A stretch of 48,508 nucleotides of DNA from Patescibacteria group bacterium. Lineage in GTDB: Bacteria > Patescibacteriota > Patescibacteriia > Magasanikbacterales > UBA922. The stretch spans positions 1-48,508 of the forward strand of contig DATDUP010000010.1 of NCBI GenBank assembly GCA_035290345.1, read 5' to 3'. Positions 833 through 44,011 of this stretch are shown here, piece after piece (the first letter of the stretch is position 1; each line of letters opens with the position of its first letter). Position numbers and translations under genes: made by a program. Under the pieces are notes generated by a model that was not told the origin of the DNA, searched no databases, and was given only the letters and a program-made list of their open reading frames with translations.

Positions 833-861
833 TTGACAAAATCATAATTTTATTGTATCCT
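833..861 (+). promoter_or_regulatory. sigma70-like promoter for the 900-1346 ORF
   Basis: TTGACA (833-838), a 17-nt spacer, then TATCCT (856-861). Confidence 0.45.
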
Positions 862-899
862 TTCCCTCGTGTTTTCCGAGTTCAACTATGGAGGAAAAG

Positions 900-1346
900 A
901 TGAAATTCGGAACCTGTGTGGTCAACGATGGGAAAGAGTGGGTCGTGTACCTGGAGTTCTACGAAGAGGAAGAAGGCGAGGAGCGTCAGACCGAAAGCAT
1001 GGTCATCGCTTTCAGCCGGGTCCAGGCCGTGAACCATGTCCGGTCCAAGGGGATCGAACCGGAGAAGGTCGACAAGCTCATCGCGGTCCTCGCCCAGTCC
1101 AACCTGCCCGAAGGAGACGGGAAGGACGAACCGCCGGTGGTGGTAGCTGAAGGGCTGGCCGCCAAGTACCTCTCCATCATGGTCGGCCTGATGCGCCACT
1201 ACAAGCGCCAGGCCCAGAGCCAGGACACGGTCTCGGTCACGCTCGTCATCCCGGGTGAGATGTACCGAGCAATGCACGAGACGTGCCCGTGCTGCCACCC
1301 GACGGAGGAGGGCAAGACAGAGGAAGGAGACAAGGCCGACAAATAG
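900..1346 (+). CDS. hypothetical protein, GC-rich, acidic, with a C-terminal CPCCHP motif
   Basis: This is track ORF 888-1346. The second ATG at 900 sits 5 nt after GGAGG. It is followed by a long hairpin (1369-1411) and a terminator. Confidence 0.6.
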   Translation: MKFGTCVVNDGKEWVVYLEFYEEEEGEERQTESMVIAFSRVQAVNHVRSKGIEPEKVDKLIAVLAQSNLPEGDGKDEPPVVVAEGLAAKYLSIMVGLMRHYKRQAQSQDTVSVTLVIPGEMYRAMHETCPCCHPTEEGKTEEGDKADK

Positions 1347-1423
1347 TCGGCATTTGGAAGGAGAGACACGCCGAGCGTGAGTCTGTCGACCGACATCACT
1401 CACGTTCGGCGATAGACTAAAGC

Positions 1424-1452
1424 AACCTATATCAGGTTGTTTTAGTTTTTTT
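1424..1452 (+). terminator. intrinsic terminator
   Basis: AACCT-ATATC-AGGTT followed by GTTTTAGTTTTTTT. It overlaps the 3' end of the convergent ORF 1432-1800. Confidence 0.55.
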
Positions 1453-1800
1453 CTTTCTCCCCTCTGCAAAGGAGAGAAGACAGGAACAATTTTTTTGACG
1501 AAGAATTTCCTGTTGTTCGTGACGGGTGTTGAGCAGAATGGTTTGCCGCGATTTACCGCTGGCCAGAGTTTTATCTAACTGACTGCAATGACGATACCCC
1601 CGCCGCTTCAATTCATGTATTTCTCTTTCGTGACGCAAGTAGAGCGCCTTCAATCTTCCTATCCAGCGCCTTACTTCCGGATGTTGACGATATCCTTTTT
1701 TCTTCTGCGTCAGAATCGTCCAGATAGCATGTAATTCCCGATGTTCGGCCAGGAGATGTTGGCGACAGAGCCAGGATGGAGAGATATCCCAAATACGCAT
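1432..1800 (-). CDS. pyrimidine dimer DNA glycosylase family protein (T4 endonuclease V-like, Pfam Pyr_excise type)
   Basis: The N-terminus MRIWDISPSWLCRQHLLAEHRELHAIW resembles the conserved start of that family. This is recognition only. Confidence 0.55.
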   Translation of the reverse strand: MRIWDISPSWLCRQHLLAEHRELHAIWTILTQKKKGYRQHPEVRRWIGRLKALYLRHEREIHELKRRGYRHCSQLDKTLASGKSRQTILLNTRHEQQEILRQKNCSCLLSFAEGRKKKTKTT

Positions 1801-14920: not shown

Positions 14921-14948
14921 AAAAAACAGCCGTATTTATCCGGCTGTT
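14921..14948 (-). terminator. intrinsic terminator after frr
   Basis: The minus strand reads AACAGCCG-GAUAAAUA-CGGCUGUU followed by a U run. Confidence 0.6.
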
Positions 14949-14962
14949 TGATAAAAGTAAAC

Positions 14963-27344: not shown

Positions 27345-27416
27345 GCCGCCATCGTCTAATGGTTAGGACTCCACGCTTTCAATGTGGAAATAGGGGTTCG
27401 ATTCCCCTTGGCGGGA
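27345..27416 (+). tRNA. trnE: tRNA-Glu (anticodon UUC), no encoded CCA
   Basis: A 72-nt cloverleaf with a CUUUCAA anticodon loop and an AGGGG-UUCGAUU-CCCCU T arm. The acceptor is GCCGCCA/UGGCGGG, which gives an apparent G1-G72 mismatch. Confidence 0.85.
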
Positions 27417-27456: not shown

Positions 27457-27473
27457 ACATATATAGAAAAGCC

Positions 27474-27502
27474 TTGACAAACCGAGGTTTTTTTTCCATA
27501 CT
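27474..27502 (+). promoter_or_regulatory. sigma70-like promoter for the asparaginase-family gene
   Basis: TTGACA (27474-27479), a 17-nt spacer, then CATACT (27497-27502). Confidence 0.45.
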
Positions 27503-27620
27503 ACCTCGTCCATTCGATGGACAGCTCAACCAGTCTAGCCCACTGGTTCGGCCCGCTCCTTTAGTAAACTGAACACAAGATTTGGAATTCGGAACTTCAA
27601 CCCTAGGAGAGGTGAGAACC

Positions 27621-28661
27621 ATGAAGATCTACATCCTGAACACAGGAGGGACTCTCGGCATGGTCGGGAACCCGCTTCGCCCCGCCAAGAGCGCCGAAGA
27701 ACTCCTCCAGGGGATCAAGGTCCCCGAAGACCTGGAGTTGACGCTGGCGGACTTCCCGTTGCGTCAGGACAGCACGAACGTGAAGCACCAGGACCGCGCC
27801 CAGATGGCGGAAATGATCGCGGCCGTGTACGACAGGTACGACGGCTTCATCATCCTCCACGGCACCGACTCACTCGCAGAGACGTGCGCGTACCTGGCCA
27901 TGTGCTTCAAGCGGAGCCTCCAGAAGCCGCTCATGGTCATCGGTGCCCAGATGACCAAGGACGAGAGTGGCTCGGACGTGCAGATGCAGATCGAAAACAC
28001 TCTGCGCGTCATACAGGCGTTCATCCGCAACCAGGTCGTCGGCGTCTACAACGTCGTCATGGGCGAGGTCTTGGATGGGGCCCGCGTACGCAAACGCAAA
28101 GACTCCGACTTCGCGGCCTTCTACACGCCGGGGAAGCACCCCGTCGCCTACGCCTGGCCCCACATCATGATCAAGGGTGCCCGCAAGCGTGATCCCGTGA
28201 TCTTCATGGAGGGGCTGCGTCTCCAGACTGAATTCGAGCCATCTGTGGTCTCCATCATGGTGTCGGCTGACACGCCGCCGTATGTCCTGACCGACATGAT
28301 CAGGATGGGCCGTGTGAAGGGCATCATCCTGGAGTGTAAGGGCGCGGGAAATATTCCCAACCGCCCCTGGCAGGAAGACAACGAACAGATCTCCTGGATT
28401 GACGCGATCAAGCTGGCAACCGAGGCGGGCGTGCACGTAGGGATCCTCTCTCCGTTCGATGACGGACGAGTGATCCTTGATCGCTACGAGCTGGGTAGCC
28501 TGGCTAAGGCAGCGGGCGCGATCTCGCTGGAGAGCCTGACGCCCGCCATGGCGGACATAAAGTTCCGTCAGGGCATCGCCCTGCACAGCACTGTTCTCCA
28601 GCAGTTCATCAGCACCAACATGGTCGGCGAGTTGCTCGAGGGCTTCGAGGACATGGGCTAG
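27621..28661 (+). CDS. L-asparaginase/glutaminase family protein (type I-like), strongly GC-rich
   Basis: MKIYILNTGGTLGM (the TGGT catalytic-Thr motif), ILHGTDSL and PLMVIGAQ. The ATG at 27621 sits 6 nt after the GGAGAGGTGAG SD element. The track ORF starts at a TTG at 27582. Confidence 0.75.
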   Translation: MKIYILNTGGTLGMVGNPLRPAKSAEELLQGIKVPEDLELTLADFPLRQDSTNVKHQDRAQMAEMIAAVYDRYDGFIILHGTDSLAETCAYLAMCFKRSLQKPLMVIGAQMTKDESGSDVQMQIENTLRVIQAFIRNQVVGVYNVVMGEVLDGARVRKRKDSDFAAFYTPGKHPVAYAWPHIMIKGARKRDPVIFMEGLRLQTEFEPSVVSIMVSADTPPYVLTDMIRMGRVKGIILECKGAGNIPNRPWQEDNEQISWIDAIKLATEAGVHVGILSPFDDGRVILDRYELGSLAKAAGAISLESLTPAMADIKFRQGIALHSTVLQQFISTNMVGELLEGFEDMG

Positions 28662-28707
28662 TCCTCACGAACCACGAGAACGTCGACAATCGACAAGGAG
28701 GTGAGGG

Positions 28708-28731
28708 ATGTTCTACATCCGACCGCCGTAA
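28708..28731 (+). other. 7-codon mini-ORF MFYIRPP-stop with a perfect SD
   Basis: AAGGAGGTGAGGG precedes the ATG at 28708, and TAA lies at 28729-28731. A CGCTGT/ACAGCG hairpin follows at 28736-28753. Confidence 0.25.
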
Positions 28732-28775
28732 AGGCCGCTGTTTGGGGACAGCGTCAACAAAACCCCATTCGATTG

Positions 28776-28807
28776 TCATCTTTACATATGTACATATGTA
28801 AAGATGA
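28776..28807. repeat. 32-bp perfect palindrome TCATCTTTACATATGT|ACATATGTAAAGATGA
   Basis: I verified base by base that the two 16-nt halves are exact reverse complements with no spacer. Confidence 0.95.
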
Positions 28808-28815
28808 TTGAGATT

Positions 28816-28845
28816 AAAAAAACATCCTTAAATGGATGATTTTTT
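28816..28845. terminator. bidirectional terminator-like hairpin
   Basis: An A7 run, CATCC-TTAAAT-GGATG, then T6. Confidence 0.45.
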
Positions 28846-28937
28846 AATTCACCAAAGTACTAGTAACTGCTCCCAACCATTTTTCTAAATCAAATACCAA
28901 TGAGTGTAAATTATCAGTGCAGTGGTGTACCAAAGAA

Positions 28938-28966: not shown

Positions 28967-28995
28967 AAAAAACCCGTCAAGGTAGATAAAACGGG
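28967..28995 (-). terminator. intrinsic terminator downstream of ORF 29068-29439
   Basis: The minus strand reads CCCGU-loop-ACGGG followed by UUUUUUG. A longer imperfect hairpin lies at 29017-29056, just after the stop codon. Confidence 0.5.
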
Positions 28996-29067
28996 GGAAT
29001 AATTACTTGAAGGCCGGCTGGGGGATCAAGAGTTCGCAGACTCAAGACCCCCCAGCTCGACTCGTTG

Positions 29068-29439
29068 TCAACTGGGACGACGACAGAGAACGAGAACATC
29101 ATTCTCTGGCCCGCCCTTTCTCACCCAGTCCTTAACCGGGCGATCGAGGGACAACCACACTTCTTCATAGCTGTCCCCATTCCAACGGAAGGCTAGAACG
29201 CGTCCTTGAACTTTCCAGCCAGTGACCAGGAGGAATGATTTGAAACAGGAGGGGATGCCCAACCGGTCATTCCTGAACCTCTTGGCCTCTTCCTCGCCAA
29301 TGGCATTCGACACCCGGCGAAGCACCTCATGGCCGCAGAAGGTCTCCTTCCAGATCCCCTCCCCCTCCTCCATGAAGCCGATTGCTTGAAAGATAATCCC
29401 CCAACGCTCAAACCAGATACCAAATTCCTTCCTAGCCAT
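29068..29439 (-). CDS. hypothetical protein, GC-rich
   Basis: This is track ORF 29068-29445. I preferred the second ATG (29439) because it lies 6 nt after GGAGGG. I recognised no motif. Confidence 0.5.
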   Translation of the reverse strand: MARKEFGIWFERWGIIFQAIGFMEEGEGIWKETFCGHEVLRRVSNAIGEEEAKRFRNDRLGIPSCFKSFLLVTGWKVQGRVLAFRWNGDSYEEVWLSLDRPVKDWVRKGGPENDVLVLCRRPS

Positions 29440-29624
29440 GGCCATCCCTCCGGTTGTCGATCCGTGTCTATAAATCCATCATCAATCCAAAATGAACTTA
29501 TAGTTTTGTACCAAAAAAGGCCTCTCCGTCAAGATGTACAGAGCGTAAATGCCCAATATAATAGTGTATTAGAATCATAAACACCCGTCCGGATGTTTTT
29601 GTGATATTAAAAATCTTGTCCTTG

Positions 29625-39484: not shown

Positions 39485-40048
39485 ATGCCGGTTCTCTATA
39501 TCAGCCTAGCCGTAGTCGCAGCCATCGTCCTCTGGCTAGTCTTTGTCTATAACGGTCTGATCCGTTTGCGTAATCGCACCCAAGAAGCATGGAGTGATAT
39601 TGATGTCCAGTTAAAACGCCGTCATGATTTGATCCCCAACCTGGTCAACAGTGTCCGGGGCTATATGGAGCATGAAAGAAATCTGTTAGAAAATATCACT
39701 CGCGCTCGTTCTCAGGCCCTTTCTGCCCAAGAAGCTGGAAACAAGGAAGAATTAGGTAAGATTGAAAGTCAACTAGGAACGATGTTGGGAAAATTGCAAA
39801 TTGCGGTAGAAGCCTATCCTGATTTAAAGGCCAATCAAAACGTTTCCCAACTAATGGATGAACTTTCCGATACAGAAAATAAAATTCAAGCCGCTCGCCG
39901 TTTCTACAACACTCAGGTACGCGACTTCAATACCAAGATGGAAGTCTTCCCGACTAATCTAGTGGCCCAAAGTTTACATTTCACCAAATTTGCTTTCTTT
40001 GAGATCGCCGAAGCCAGTGAACGCGAAAACATAGAAGTAAAACTCTAA
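39485..40048 (+). CDS. lemA: LemA family protein
   Basis: An N-terminal TM helix, YNGLIRLRN, and RRFYNTQVRDFNTKMEVFP. Confidence 0.9.
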   Translation: MPVLYISLAVVAAIVLWLVFVYNGLIRLRNRTQEAWSDIDVQLKRRHDLIPNLVNSVRGYMEHERNLLENITRARSQALSAQEAGNKEELGKIESQLGTMLGKLQIAVEAYPDLKANQNVSQLMDELSDTENKIQAARRFYNTQVRDFNTKMEVFPTNLVAQSLHFTKFAFFEIAEASERENIEVKL

Positions 40049-40052
40049 AAAC

Positions 40053-40934
40053 ATGTACAACCAGATTGATTCCAATAAACGCAAAACCGCGTTGTTAATC
40101 GCGGTCTTTCTTGTTTTTTTCCTGGCTCTAGGTTGGTTTTTAGGTGTCTATCTAGGCCATGGGTACGGTGTCTTTGCCCTTTGTCTCTTACTCTCTTTGG
40201 GTATGACCTTAGTCAGTTTTTTCCAAGGAGACAAAATCGCTCTATCTACCACCGGAGCCAAAGCTATAAACAAAGAAGACAACCCCTATGTCTATCGTCT
40301 GGTGGAAAATCTGGCCATCACCGCTGGTTTGCCTCTACCTAAAATTTACATCATTGACTCTCCGGCCATGAATGCTTTTGCCACTGGCCGCGATCCCCAA
40401 CATGCTTCTCTGGCTCTGACCACCGGCCTGATCCAAAACTTGGAGAATGAAGAGTTAGAGGGAGTAATCGCCCATGAATTGTCCCATATCCAAAATTACG
40501 ATATTCGACTGATGACCATTGTCGTTGTTTTAGTGGGGGCAATAACGCTTCTGGCCAATATCTTCTTCCGCACCCGCGGGCTGACCTCCCAACGCAATGA
40601 CAACCGCCACAACGGTCAATTAGGAGCAATTATTGCTGTCATCGGCGTTCTCTTGATTGTCCTGTCCCCGATCATTGCTGAACTAATCAAGCTGGCCATT
40701 TCCCGCAAACGAGAATTCTTGGCCGATGCCTCCGGAGTAATGCTGACCCGATATCCCGAAGGTTTGGCCAAAGCCTTGGAAAAAATAAGTCAATCCACAA
40801 TCCCTCTTAATACTGCCAACTCTGCCACCGCCCATCTCTTCATCAGCAATCCCTTTAAATCCCAATCTTGGCATCGCCTGTTTTCCACTCACCCTCCCAT
40901 TCCAGAAAGAATCGCCAAACTCCGAGGACAATAA
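40053..40934 (+). CDS. htpX: M48 family zinc protease HtpX
   Basis: HELSHIQN (HExxH), four TM segments and a downstream EFLAD. Confidence 0.9.
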   Translation: MYNQIDSNKRKTALLIAVFLVFFLALGWFLGVYLGHGYGVFALCLLLSLGMTLVSFFQGDKIALSTTGAKAINKEDNPYVYRLVENLAITAGLPLPKIYIIDSPAMNAFATGRDPQHASLALTTGLIQNLENEELEGVIAHELSHIQNYDIRLMTIVVVLVGAITLLANIFFRTRGLTSQRNDNRHNGQLGAIIAVIGVLLIVLSPIIAELIKLAISRKREFLADASGVMLTRYPEGLAKALEKISQSTIPLNTANSATAHLFISNPFKSQSWHRLFSTHPPIPERIAKLRGQ

Positions 40935-40940
40935 TAAATA

Positions 40941-41011
40941 ACGAAAAAACAGCCCAATTTGAGCTGTTTTTTGTGAGCCGTCTTTTTGAATGGTAGACGG
41001 CGAGAACCAGG
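40941..41011 (-). repeat. terminator module, copy 1 (71 nt), containing a bidirectional terminator and a second hairpin
   Basis: ACGAAAAAACAGCCCAATTTGAGCTGTTTTTTGTGAGCCGTCTTTTTGAATGGTAGACGGCGAGAACCAGG. It matches 41745-41815 at 69 of 71 positions. It also serves as the terminator for the convergent htpX. Confidence 0.9.
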
Positions 41012-41047
41012 AGGTTAGACAGTTAGACGGAAGGTGTAGGAACGGAT

Positions 41048-41614
41048 CTACGAACAGCGGTGGATATACGGGTACCGGCGTTCGACGAACGCCAGTGCCG
41101 GTGCTCCCAGCAGGATGGGAATGGTCCCACTCCCTCCTTGAAAAATTGACGTGCAACTCCAAAGGAGGAAGACGAACATCAGGTAGCACCAGTAGAGACT
41201 TGGCGGGTCAAACGCCACTTCTGGTCTCCAAGAATTCCCCTGGTGCCAGCTTGTCATGGCCTTCCAGGCCAGGTACGGCAGCAGAACAGCCGCGGCCGCT
41301 GCGGCTGCGAAATGCCATGGCCCCCATGCCTGGCTGGCCGTCTGCTCCCAGAAGGCGGAAAGCAACGCCGCTGCCACCCCCACGACCAGGGACGGCTGGG
41401 TGACGATCCGGCCGTACGCTGCCGCCAGCATGCTTTCCCCATGCTGGGCCAACAGCACCAAGCCGAGAGGGAACGCGAAGATCAGCAGCAGAACAACGAA
41501 ACCGGCAAGGACGACGTACATCATCACCTCCTGCCCGATGCCGGACAGAAGAAACGACCAGGTCGCCGCGATTGCTACCATCTTGAACGAATTACTGCTA
41601 ATTTCCTTCATCAT
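41048..41614 (-). CDS. hypothetical polytopic membrane protein, GC-rich (cassette 1)
   Basis: The ATG at 41614 is preceded by GGAGGTG. There are four or more hydrophobic segments. The track ORF extends upstream into the promoter. Confidence 0.6.
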   Translation of the reverse strand: MMKEISSNSFKMVAIAATWSFLLSGIGQEVMMYVVLAGFVVLLLIFAFPLGLVLLAQHGESMLAAAYGRIVTQPSLVVGVAAALLSAFWEQTASQAWGPWHFAAAAAAAVLLPYLAWKAMTSWHQGNSWRPEVAFDPPSLYWCYLMFVFLLWSCTSIFQGGSGTIPILLGAPALAFVERRYPYIHRCS

Positions 41615-41672
41615 GATGCACCTCCGAAGTGGCCCACCAACGGGCTGTTTTTTTACCTTCCTTGTAAAGATC

Positions 41673-41721
41673 AACCTCAAATGAACGCCGTAGTATAGCA
41701 CAAAAACCCCCTTTTGTCAAG
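41673..41721 (-). promoter_or_regulatory. promoter module, copy A (about 49 nt)
   Basis: The minus strand reads TTGACA (41720-41715), 17 nt, TATACT (41697-41692), then ACGGCGTTCATTTGAGGTT. It is nearly identical to 42475-42523. Confidence 0.65.
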
Positions 41722-41744
41722 TTGTCAAGATGGTGATAGAAGAT

Positions 41745-41815
41745 ACGAAAAAACAGCCCAATTTGAGCTGTTTTTTGTGGACCGTCTTTTTGAATGGTAG
41801 ACGGCGAGAACCAGG
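41745..41815 (-). repeat. terminator module, copy 2 (71 nt)
   Basis: It matches 40941-41011 at 69 of 71 positions (AG versus GA at two adjacent positions). Confidence 0.9.
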
Positions 41816-41861
41816 GATGAAACGGAAGGCAGAAGTAGCAACCAGAAAGGTCGCTGAGGGG

Positions 41862-42413
41862 TCAGATGTCAAGGTATCGGTGATCGATGTTAAGGTCCTG
41901 ATTTCTTTCGAGCCACCTCATCCCGAACATCCCCATGGCAGCCATCATGACTATCCATTGATCCGGGACAAGGTTGGCCGAAACTATGGTGCAATACAGG
42001 ACTGCATACCACAGCATCGACGCCCAATTGAACCAGTCGTCGGCTGTCGGCCACTTGCTCTTGATAGCTACCCGGTTTGAGAACCAGGCGACCCAGACAG
42101 CGAGGGCACAGACAATGGGCGTAAGGTATCGCACCCATTCCCAGCCCATGGTCGAGAGGGTAAAGAGGAAGGCATAACTACGTACCAGACCCGGCGTTCC
42201 CTGCACCGGCTCACTGGGACACCTCATGGCAGACTTCAACGCCATCGACCCCACCCTCAGCAGGGGCAGACCAATGGCCAAGATGCCGGCGATGGCTGCC
42301 ACGAGCCGGCAGTACTCGGTGTCTGACAACCCCCGAATCACGGCCTTAGCAATCGCAATCGCAAAAGCCGTATTGATGTACGTCATGACTTCGTCTTTCT
42401 CATAGTGCAACAT
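41862..42413 (-). CDS. hypothetical polytopic membrane protein, GC-rich, Trp-rich (cassette 2)
   Basis: The ATG at 42413 is preceded by AAAGGGGGAAAG. There are several hydrophobic segments. I saw no similarity to the cassette 1 protein. Confidence 0.6.
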   Translation of the reverse strand: MLHYEKDEVMTYINTAFAIAIAKAVIRGLSDTEYCRLVAAIAGILAIGLPLLRVGSMALKSAMRCPSEPVQGTPGLVRSYAFLFTLSTMGWEWVRYLTPIVCALAVWVAWFSNRVAIKSKWPTADDWFNWASMLWYAVLYCTIVSANLVPDQWIVMMAAMGMFGMRWLERNQDLNIDHRYLDI

Positions 42414-42474
42414 CTTTCCCCCTTTGGCCCGCGGCCGATAGATAGTTTCATCCGTAAATTGAATTGAAAGGTAC

Positions 42475-42523
42475 AAACCTCAAATGAACGCCGTAGTATA
42501 GCACGAAAAACCCCTTTTGTCAA
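42475..42523 (-). promoter_or_regulatory. promoter module, copy B (about 49 nt)
   Basis: The minus strand reads TTGACA (42522-42517), 17 nt, TATACT (42499-42494), then ACGGCGTTCATTTGAGGTT. Confidence 0.65.
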
Positions 42524-42550
42524 GAGGTTTTCGTGATATTTCAGCTAATT

Positions 42551-43918
42551 CTAGCCGTTTTCTTTGATAATCTGGGATATTTCTTGAAGCTTTTTCTGCA
42601 TTATTTCTCTGGTTTGGGCTTCAAGGTTGAGCCGGAGCAAAGGTTCGGTGTTGCTCAGACGGACATTAAACCAAAAATCAGGATAGGTAAAAAGCAGCCC
42701 ATCCAAATCATTGATTACCGCATCGTGATATTTTTCCTTCAAAACTTGCAGAACTCTTTCCTTGTTTTCCACTTCAAAGTTTATTTCCCCGGGATTCGCA
42801 TATTGATCAAGTTCTGACCAAAGCGCTGACAAAGGTTTGTCTGATTGAGACAATAATTCCAAAAAGAAAAGCAGAGAAAGTTCTGGTGATTCCAAATCAT
42901 ACATGTCATGATAGTAAAGGTGGAGGGAAAGTTCGGCAGCGAATTGCCCACCTTTTTCTTTCATGATCTTCTTTATATTCGCATGCCCGACCGGGGTCAT
43001 ACCAGTTTTCGCACCCATCGCTTCCCATTTTTCCACTACGGCCCGACTCAAACGCAAATCATACCAGAGCAAGGACCCGGGATTCTTTTTTAAAATTTCT
43101 AGACCTACCAGACCACCCACAAAAGAAGCGGGCACCACCTGCCCTTTTTCGTCAACCAACCCGATCCGATCCGCATCCCCGTCTAAAGCAAAACCAAAAT
43201 CTGCCCCGGTTTCTACTACTTTCTTTTGGAGGGCTTGGAGAGTTTCCGTTTTCAAAGGATTAGCTTCATGATTGGGGAAGCGACCATCTGGTTCCAAAAA
43301 AAGATACTCCACTTCCAGCGGTAGATCCTTTATCAATTCTAAAAAAGTCACTTTAGCCATGCCATTGCCAGCATCAATAACAATCTTTTTGGGTTGAATC
43401 CTTTTCTTGTCCACCAAGCGAAAAACTCGGGTCAGATAGTCTGCCAAAGGAGAAAACTCCTCCACCACCGCGTTCTTTTTTTCTGACCACTCTTTTTTTT
43501 CCACCAAATCCCGCAATTCATTCATCCCCGTATCCTTGCCCACTGGCAGTCCAGTATTGTAGGTAAGCTTGAAACCATTAAATTGGGCTGGATTGTGACT
43601 GGCTGTCACCATGATACCGCCAGCATGTTCAGGATAGTGGGCACAAGTGAAATTGAAAAGAGGGGTAGAAGCCAGCCCAATCGTTACCACTGCCAAACCT
43701 TCATCTTGGATACCGCGAACTAGGGCTTGAGCGTAATCAATACTAGTTGGCCTCATGTCCCAACCCACGACAATTTTTTTGCCTTGCCGGTCCACACCTC
43801 GTCTTTGCAAAAGGACCACAAAAGCCCGCCCTAAATCATAGGCTAAATCAGTTGATAATTCTGTATCCGCCAAACCGCGGATGTCATAGGCTTTAAAAAT
43901 GTGAGCAGGGAAGGACAT
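42551..43918 (-). CDS. phosphoglucomutase/phosphomannomutase family protein
   Basis: FKAYDIRG near the start, the active-site TASHNPAQFNGFK and the metal loop LDGDADR. I preferred the ATG at 43918 over the TTG at 43945. Confidence 0.9.
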   Translation of the reverse strand: MSFPAHIFKAYDIRGLADTELSTDLAYDLGRAFVVLLQRRGVDRQGKKIVVGWDMRPTSIDYAQALVRGIQDEGLAVVTIGLASTPLFNFTCAHYPEHAGGIMVTASHNPAQFNGFKLTYNTGLPVGKDTGMNELRDLVEKKEWSEKKNAVVEEFSPLADYLTRVFRLVDKKRIQPKKIVIDAGNGMAKVTFLELIKDLPLEVEYLFLEPDGRFPNHEANPLKTETLQALQKKVVETGADFGFALDGDADRIGLVDEKGQVVPASFVGGLVGLEILKKNPGSLLWYDLRLSRAVVEKWEAMGAKTGMTPVGHANIKKIMKEKGGQFAAELSLHLYYHDMYDLESPELSLLFFLELLSQSDKPLSALWSELDQYANPGEINFEVENKERVLQVLKEKYHDAVINDLDGLLFTYPDFWFNVRLSNTEPLLRLNLEAQTREIMQKKLQEISQIIKENG

Positions 43919-43934
43919 AGGGATAATATTTACT

Positions 43935-43963
43935 TTGCTAATCAACAGAAAACAGTATATAAT
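43935..43963 (+). promoter_or_regulatory. sigma70-like promoter for the clpC-like gene
   Basis: TTGCTA (43935-43940), a 17-nt spacer, then TATAAT (43958-43963). Confidence 0.5.
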
Positions 43964-44011
43964 ATAGAGGAAAAAGAGGCAATCTGCCGGTTTTTTCGGT
44001 TAAATAGGCAT

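Follow-up and report, generated by a model that had tools for sequence, protein, structure and literature searches.

Bacteria of the candidate phyla radiation (CPR) have tiny genomes, and a dependence on hosts and on DNA that they take up is assumed for them; to our knowledge, gene acquisition in these organisms and the immediate expression of new genes are poorly known. A contig of 48,508 nt from an uncultured groundwater Candidatus Magasanikbacteria (GenBank DATDUP010000010.1, analysed over its full length and called the window hereafter) contains two membrane-protein genes, named here cargo A and cargo B, which sit between htpX and the phosphogluco/phosphomannomutase gene pgm. The two flanking genes are convergent and both cargo units are located inside their gap. 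On the transcribed strand, the order is P2-B-T2-23 nt-P1-A-T1, in which P1 and P2 are copies of a promoter module (P-module) and T1 and T2 copies of a terminator module (T-module). The two cargos are orphans of foreign composition, each equipped with predicted strong and independent expression signals.

Regulatory modules and cargo genes

Using a repeat finder on positions 39500-44000, T1 and T2 were found to be identical at 69 of 71 positions (97%) with a spacing of 804 nt, and P1 and P2 at 47 of 49 positions (96%) with a spacing of 803 nt. These values agree with an earlier note on this DNA, which described the two T copies, a period of about 803 bp and the first P copy at the same places, while its second P copy was one base off (Table 1). 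Both P copies are top-ranked in a regional promoter scan (TTGACA-17-TATACT, as the same note had read it; 11/12, with an extended -10 TG). The transcript common to both copies, which it had put at about 20 nt, is in fact about 12 nt long, 19 nt of the module following the -10 hexamer. As RNA, the T copies fold as had been proposed, into a 7-bp GCCGTCT/AGACGG(C/U) hairpin and a 13-bp A6/U6 bidirectional terminator (z ~ -4.9 against shuffles), and at their only two differences the G-C pair closing the first hairpin becomes G-U. The longest unbroken identical stretches between module copies are 35, 34 and 29 nt. In pairwise alignments, the module edges are sharp on every side, identity dropping from about 97% to chance within a few bases, except in the 3' untranslated regions (UTRs) of A and B, where a gapped remnant CCTTCCGTYT...CCTGG continues for roughly 20-25 nt beyond the T-module.

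From its sequence, T1 is predicted to end transcription of cargo A and, on the + strand, that of htpX, whose stop codon is 6 nt away. T2 is predicted to end cargo B transcription and to insulate P1, so that each gene should be expressed constitutively and independently. The pgm stop codon lies 26 nt from P2, and since pgm has no terminator of its own in that gap, its transcripts should read into cargo B. T2 and P1 are joined, as described before, by 23 nt of unique sequence, which opens with an 8-nt repeat of the P1 end (TTGTCAAG). Both cargos are preceded by a Shine-Dalgarno (SD) site, which reads GGAGGTG in A and, with one wobble pair, AAGGGGG in B, and their leaders have no unusual structure (z = -0.5 and +0.7).

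Each cargo open reading frame (ORF) covers an entire GC-rich segment. At the three codon positions, GC content is 0.58/0.48/0.74 in A and 0.51/0.45/0.71 in B, compared with a third-position value (GC3) of 0.38-0.51 in about 19 native genes of the window, in surroundings of about 0.45 GC; the cargos are thus real coding regions of foreign codon composition. Both products have about four strongly hydrophobic segments, 6-7 predicted helices and 9-10 Trp residues, and are predicted to be all-helical. No family match was obtained for either in Pfam, PADLOC, PHROGs or NCBIfam. A word-indexed search of 5.8 billion proteins returned only A and B themselves, exhaustive phmmer with cargo B against 1.84 billion representative proteins returned only the query, and tblastn-type scans of viral contigs gave no match to the cargos. 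A role of the products in the envelope, for instance in exclusion or immunity (the latter also suggested in the earlier note), may be guessed from the parallel with HK97 gp15 and other inner-membrane proteins encoded by morons. Foldseek searches of the PDB found nothing significant, the single-sequence AlphaFold models used having mean confidence (pLDDT) values of 60 (A) and 53 (B), too poor for fold comparison.

Table 1. Positions of the locus components, of the other foreign-composition units in the window, and contents of the same gap in relatives (SD, Shine-Dalgarno site; GC3, GC at third codon positions)
Feature	Position	Strand	Details
htpX (M48 peptidase), left native flank	40053-40934	+	PF01435, E = 2.4e-34; GC3 0.51
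T-module copy 1 (T1)	40941-41011	-	hairpin GCCGTCT..AGACGGC 40977-41001; bidirectional A6-stem-T6 terminator 40944-40972
Cargo A 3' UTR	41012-41047	-	degenerate gapped likeness to cargo B 3' UTR (read directly)
Cargo A, 188-aa orphan polytopic membrane protein, Trp-rich	41048-41614	-	GC 0.60, GC3 0.74
Cargo A leader, unique part	41615-41672	-	SD GGAGGTG; + strand terminator-like hairpin 41626-41651
P-module copy 1 (P1)	41673-41721	-	-35 TTGACA 41715-41720; 17-nt spacer; TG-extended -10 TATACT 41692-41697
Unique junction TTGTCAAGATGGTGATAGAAGAT	41722-41744		23 nt; first 8 nt repeat last 8 nt of P1
T-module copy 2 (T2)	41745-41815	-	hairpin 41781-41805; terminator 41748-41776
Cargo B, 183-aa orphan polytopic membrane protein, Trp-rich	41862-42413	-	GC 0.55, GC3 0.71
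P-module copy 2 (P2)	42476-42524	-	-35 at 42518-42523; -10 at 42495-42500
pgm, phosphogluco/phosphomannomutase, right native flank	42551-43945	-	Pfam PGM_PMM I-IV
152-aa orphan unit	ORF 888-1346, unit 833-1455	+	GC3 0.82
Diverged third P-family member, before asparaginase gene	27473-27521	+	36/49 identical, ungapped
Type I asparaginase unit	ORF 27621-28661, unit 27473-28848	+	GC3 0.85; Pfam match; PDB relatives
125-aa orphan unit	ORF 29068-29445, unit 28968-29545	-	GC3 0.65
htpX-pgm gap in L009 (GCA_964531615.1)			81-aa ORF, then Y1-transposase-like gene
htpX-pgm gap in L018 (GCA_016207245.1)			inverted-repeat element, GC-richer 236-aa orphan (-), Y1-transposase-like gene
After htpX in L010-L012, L020			other genes follow htpX

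Several other features were observed in and around the modules. P2 forms, with its unique right flank, an inverted repeat (CACGAAAAACC..GGTTTTCGTG, 42501-42534) with the -35 box in its loop, and one of the two P1/P2 differences (A to G) strengthens this pairing. In the cargo A leader, the + strand of 41626-41658 contains a terminator-like hairpin (GTGGCCCACCAACGGGCTG) followed by T7, one arm of which, GGGCTGTTTTTT, is a 12-nt stretch that the T-module terminator carries in the opposite orientation. The GCCGTCT hairpin was considered as a DNA-uptake sequence and rejected, the likeness of GCCGTCT to the Neisseria uptake sequence being due to chance (5 occurrences outside the locus for about 3.5 expected). 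Similarly, P-junction-T was rejected as a miniature inverted-repeat transposable element (MITE) or Correia-like element, being devoid of terminal inverted repeats and having half-elements as its outer copies.

Similar units in the window and in relatives

A profile built from P1 and P2 only and searched with nhmmer retrieved, as next-best match in the window, the promoter of a type I asparaginase gene (27473-27517, E = 3e-4), whereas native near-consensus promoters (tRNA, L10, lemA, clp) did not match the model. The P-module thus appears to belong to a small family tied to genes of foreign composition. The T-module has no further relative in the window, and neither the P nor the T core recurs there at up to 3 mismatches (shuffles expect 0).

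The asparaginase unit and two orphan units share a common build: a promoter of the TTGAC type and a leader come first, then a strong SD ahead of a single ORF, and a GC-rich hairpin with an A-run/T-run terminator closes the unit. Together with A and B, five un-ameliorated foreign units are present, whose coding DNA makes up about 6% of the window; four of the five have no detected relative, homologue searches having been made for A and B only. The asparaginase and 125-aa units are located just after a tRNA gene (27345-27416). Forty-six nucleotides after the asparaginase stop codon, a mini-ORF (MFYIRPP*, 28708-28731) with a strong SD (AAGGAGGTGAGGG) precedes a small hairpin, a perfect palindrome of 30 nt (28777-28806) and, at 28818-28848, a bidirectional terminator. 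The mini-ORF resembles a Pro-Pro stalling leader peptide, with no gene downstream in that direction.

The surroundings of cargos A and B are those of a housekeeping region, with genes for TsaD, DnaE, PheST, RseP, LemA, HtpX, PGM and ClpC, tRNAs and an L10 leader. No phage gene was found in the flanking 20 kb, and an Rfam scan gave no family match within the locus. All relatives of HtpX are from Candidatus Magasanikbacteria or Patescibacteria, the closest being only 73% identical. Comparison of the htpX-to-phosphohexomutase gap across relatives, which the earlier note had suggested, revealed different inserts, among them another GC-richer orphan unit. The orphan of GCA_016207245.1, whose GC3 is 0.65, is served by a TTGACA-17-TACCAT promoter of its own and a strong SD, together with a GC hairpin and an A8/T8 terminator. 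The inserts and modules of these distant relatives are unrelated in sequence to those of the window. These different inserts point to the htpX/pgm gap as a recurrent landing site for single-gene units of such build.

In both of the relatives identified by accession in Table 1, which are syntenic Magasanikbacteria (regions L018, 5906-7572, and L009, 6903-7824), a Y1-transposase (IS200/RAYT-like) gene is found beside pgm, with a Pfam score just below threshold. The inverted-repeat element of L018 has 29-nt arms and sits with the 236-aa orphan unit directly after htpX. Mobilisation of the IS200/RAYT type was rejected for the window, which holds no transposase remnant and in which GTAG is on the wrong side of the hairpin for a repetitive extragenic palindromic (REP) element.

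Origin of the tandem arrangement

The favoured reading, to which a probability of about one half is given, is that recombination through shared terminator-promoter sequences brought two autonomous, moron-like transcription units into tandem. It is inferred from the common P and T modules, which would act as portable homology for different cargos. The starting state would be one P-cargo-T unit, to which a second was joined through P or T homology. This could proceed by single-crossover integration of a circular or incoming cassette bearing P and T, or by tandem duplication of the unit followed by replacement of one cargo through a double crossover in T and P. Either route would leave a terminator-23 nt-promoter composite in the middle.

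Several observations weigh against this reading. The inserts between the modules (41012-41672 and 41816-42475) measure 661 and 660 nt with their start codons in register, an equality that capture does not predict unless A and B are ancient alleles; with A and B as very old alleles of a single locus in a wider gene pool, the same model would also account for the equal length. Identity of 29-35 nt is near the lower limit for RecA-type recombination. The copies known in 48.5 kb amount to two T, two close P and one diverged P, and exact 23-29-nt T and P cores gave 0 matches in viral, JGI metagenome and GTDB genome contigs. These scans are weak negatives that say little about the same genome, since the source locus itself was not returned either. 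The available contigs contain no circular form, no alternative cargo between the same flanks and no single-unit strain, the population that they represent being essentially clonal, and no independent contig spans the middle junction. Degenerate P-family patterns yielded 0 matches and 5 chance matches in viral contigs, and whole-locus blastn against phages and plasmids none. Collectively, the evidence suggests that the modules are not widespread. The earlier proposal of a cassette system finds no support, with only two T and two close P copies and cores absent from the collections searched. Its related idea, that the flanks serve as exchange handles, goes in the right direction given the foreign orphan cargo, the PeSL-like composite (PeSL, promoter-early stem-loop; see below) and the varied inserts in the gap, as does its alternative of constitutively expressed small membrane proteins; with only two copies, mobility is hypothetical.

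An alternative, considered unlikely, is that the whole 1.6-kb block (P-B-T-junction-P-A-T) was gained in one transfer from a donor with repeated terminator-promoter elements, with no local recombination. It would agree with the same foreign composition of both cargos and with the related promoter found before another foreign gene 14 kb away. Runs of ORFans (orphan ORFs) flanked by modules are also typical of T4-type hyperplastic regions (PMC2839356). However, searches of phage, plasmid and viral-contig collections gave no donor-like sequence, and T1 abuts the htpX stop codon and would serve as htpX terminator. Moreover, the terminator style AAACAGCC...GGCTGTTT is also present at native genes of the window (e.g., 14924-14949), so that the signals look host-type.

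Somewhat less probable still is tandem duplication of one unit followed by extreme divergence of the coding part, in which A and B would be old paralogues and the flanks would have been kept by gene conversion and/or purifying selection. In size, helix layout and Trp content A and B are alike, and, besides the equal inserts, the second ATG of A coincides with the ATG of B at an offset of +1. Aligned colinearly without gaps, the DNA sequences are 33.5% identical (z = 3.3; other in-phase offsets give 27.8 +/- 1.7%). The cross-correlation of hydropathy has its maximum at -2 to -1 aa (r = 0.45), and both C-termini carry [VI][ED][RH]RYxxI in register. Yet the same DNA identity is reached at the unrelated offset +127, and local DNA alignment of A and B gives z = -0.06. 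The protein tests are non-significant as well: BLASTP gives E = 5.4, in line with the lack of similarity first noted by eye, the in-register BLOSUM score z = 1.3, the in-register diagonal ranks 30 of 301, and the global test agrees. No reverse-complement, complement or reversed relation between the cargos was found. Homology of A and B is thus unproven by sequence comparison, and the equal lengths, register and C-terminal motif could be coincidence or very old homology without net indel.

Two further points argue against paralogy. Saturation at all three codon positions beside sharp-edged flanks of 96-97% identity would need continuous conversion of very short tracts, and the un-ameliorated foreign GC3 of both cargos argues for recent arrival over long residence. 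Duplication followed by divergence is therefore unlikely. The earlier note had discounted plain duplication: such an event indeed accounts poorly for nearly identical flanks with sharp boundaries around cargo at chance level, and the in-register hints remain on its side.

Support for the assembly comes from contigs of other samples and assemblers (Logan, ENA and JGI; SRR3989339 and the ANAN16 series), in which htpX-T1-cargo A and pgm-P2-cargo B-T2 recur with 0-2 mismatches, all outside the cargo. A chaining by the assembler of two strain alleles, htpX-T-A-P-pgm and htpX-T-B-P-pgm, would fit the fact that these contigs show only the two halves and leave 41590-41786 uncrossed, as well as a cargo B variant with 3 aa changes in the same sequencing run, but it is very improbable, as the 23-nt junction sequence is found nowhere else and cannot be invented by an assembler, the module copies differ at 2 positions each, consistently placed, and both cargos are recorded together on a 65,330-nt and on the 48,508-nt contig, which are maybe not separate assemblies. 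The tandem arrangement is accepted on the grounds of this unique junction and of the joint record of the cargos, and it is flagged accordingly.

The cargo B variant, P0005, originates from a read-level assembly of SRR3989339, corresponds to 42057-42413 (- strand) of the window and carries T14A, C35G and L58F in 119 residues. The same run holds an identical cargo B copy, and all other genes compared between samples are identical or one residue apart. P0005 could be a second copy or come from a second strain.

Comparison with morons, PeSLs and gene cassettes

The closest described parallels are found in phages. In T4-type phages, PeSLs are conserved stretches of up to about 100 bp which flank ORFans and supply transcription signals (PMC2839356; PMC4122927). 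PeSL motifs recombine together, so that ORFans are inserted, deleted or replaced via mini-circles (Arbiol et al., 2010, PMC2839356; Comeau et al., 2014, PMC4122927). In the window, T2-23 nt-P1 similarly places a terminator stem-loop beside a strong sigma-70-like promoter in an intergenic position, and the elements, roughly 50-100 nt long, provide short homology and flank unrelated ORFans, each with its own transcription start and stop. In contrast to PeSLs, which lie in phage hyperplastic regions, this locus is placed among the housekeeping genes of a CPR chromosome and has no phage matches. One full composite and two half-sites are present in the 48.5 kb instead of dozens; stem-loops of the GGGG..CCCC type are absent; and the cargo is strongly GC-shifted relative to the genome. 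Neither mini-circles nor indel polymorphism was seen in the available contigs. Regarding variation of ORFans between relatives, the nearest HtpX is 73% identical, same-species contigs are clonal and distant relatives carry other inserts.

In lambdoid and other temperate phages, a moron is a single gene that has a promoter and a terminator to itself and departs from its neighbours in GC content (Cumby et al., 2012, PMC3594210). Small membrane proteins are frequent among moron products, the HK97 gp15 exclusion protein being one example (PMC3594210). Each unit here is likewise a single gene of deviant GC with its own predicted promoter and terminator, inserted between unrelated genes, but without the prophage context of morons. 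Morons are not known to have regulatory flanks in common.

Integrons and clusters of attC sites lacking integrases (CALIN) likewise line up single-gene cassettes that are unrelated and often orphan, with conserved structured repeats between them. Unlike them, the locus contains no IntI, attI, or attC with R''/L''-L'/R' architecture among the scanned neighbours, and no recombinase or integrase domain was found among the ORFs scanned near it, consistent with the initial impression that neither an integrase nor an attC-like site is visible. A GTTAGAC (GTTRRRY match) occurs in the 3' UTR of unit A only and is absent from unit B. Each unit here also has its own promoter and terminator, the conserved elements being transcription signals. 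Site-specific recombination was considered and rejected, as the left, middle and right junctions have no core in common; only a GTGATA 6-mer is found at both the middle and the right junction.

Minimal mobile elements, or allelic islets, of naturally transformable bacteria (Neisseria) are fixed gaps between conserved genes which hold unrelated inserts in each lineage and exchange them via the conserved flanks. The htpX/pgm gap resembles them in its fixed position, its lineage-specific unrelated inserts and the presumed homologous recombination. In minimal mobile elements the arms are the flanking genes, whereas here they would be the 49- and 71-nt modules, with two inserts in tandem.

Collectively, the signals, the repeat structure, the foreign codon composition and orphan status of the cargos and the varying inserts in the gap describe moron- and PeSL-like units in a CPR chromosome. 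A further-reaching possibility, rather doubtful at present, is a cellular counterpart of PeSL shuffling, in which the modules would act as homology arms to capture, express and exchange foreign orphans at intergenic landing pads without a recombinase. If true, such recombinase-free capture in an ultra-small genome would account for several GC3-rich single-gene units in the window.

If the modules are homology handles, a form of gene shuffling whose description has been confined to T4-type phages would also occur in cellular chromosomes, and the arrival of orphan genes with expression signals already attached would be explained. On a conservative reading, 48.5 kb of a Magasanikbacteria genome of 45% GC contain five un-ameliorated foreign single-gene units. 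Such units are good targets for investigating the role of orphan membrane proteins, predicted to be strongly expressed, in the envelope of an episymbiont.

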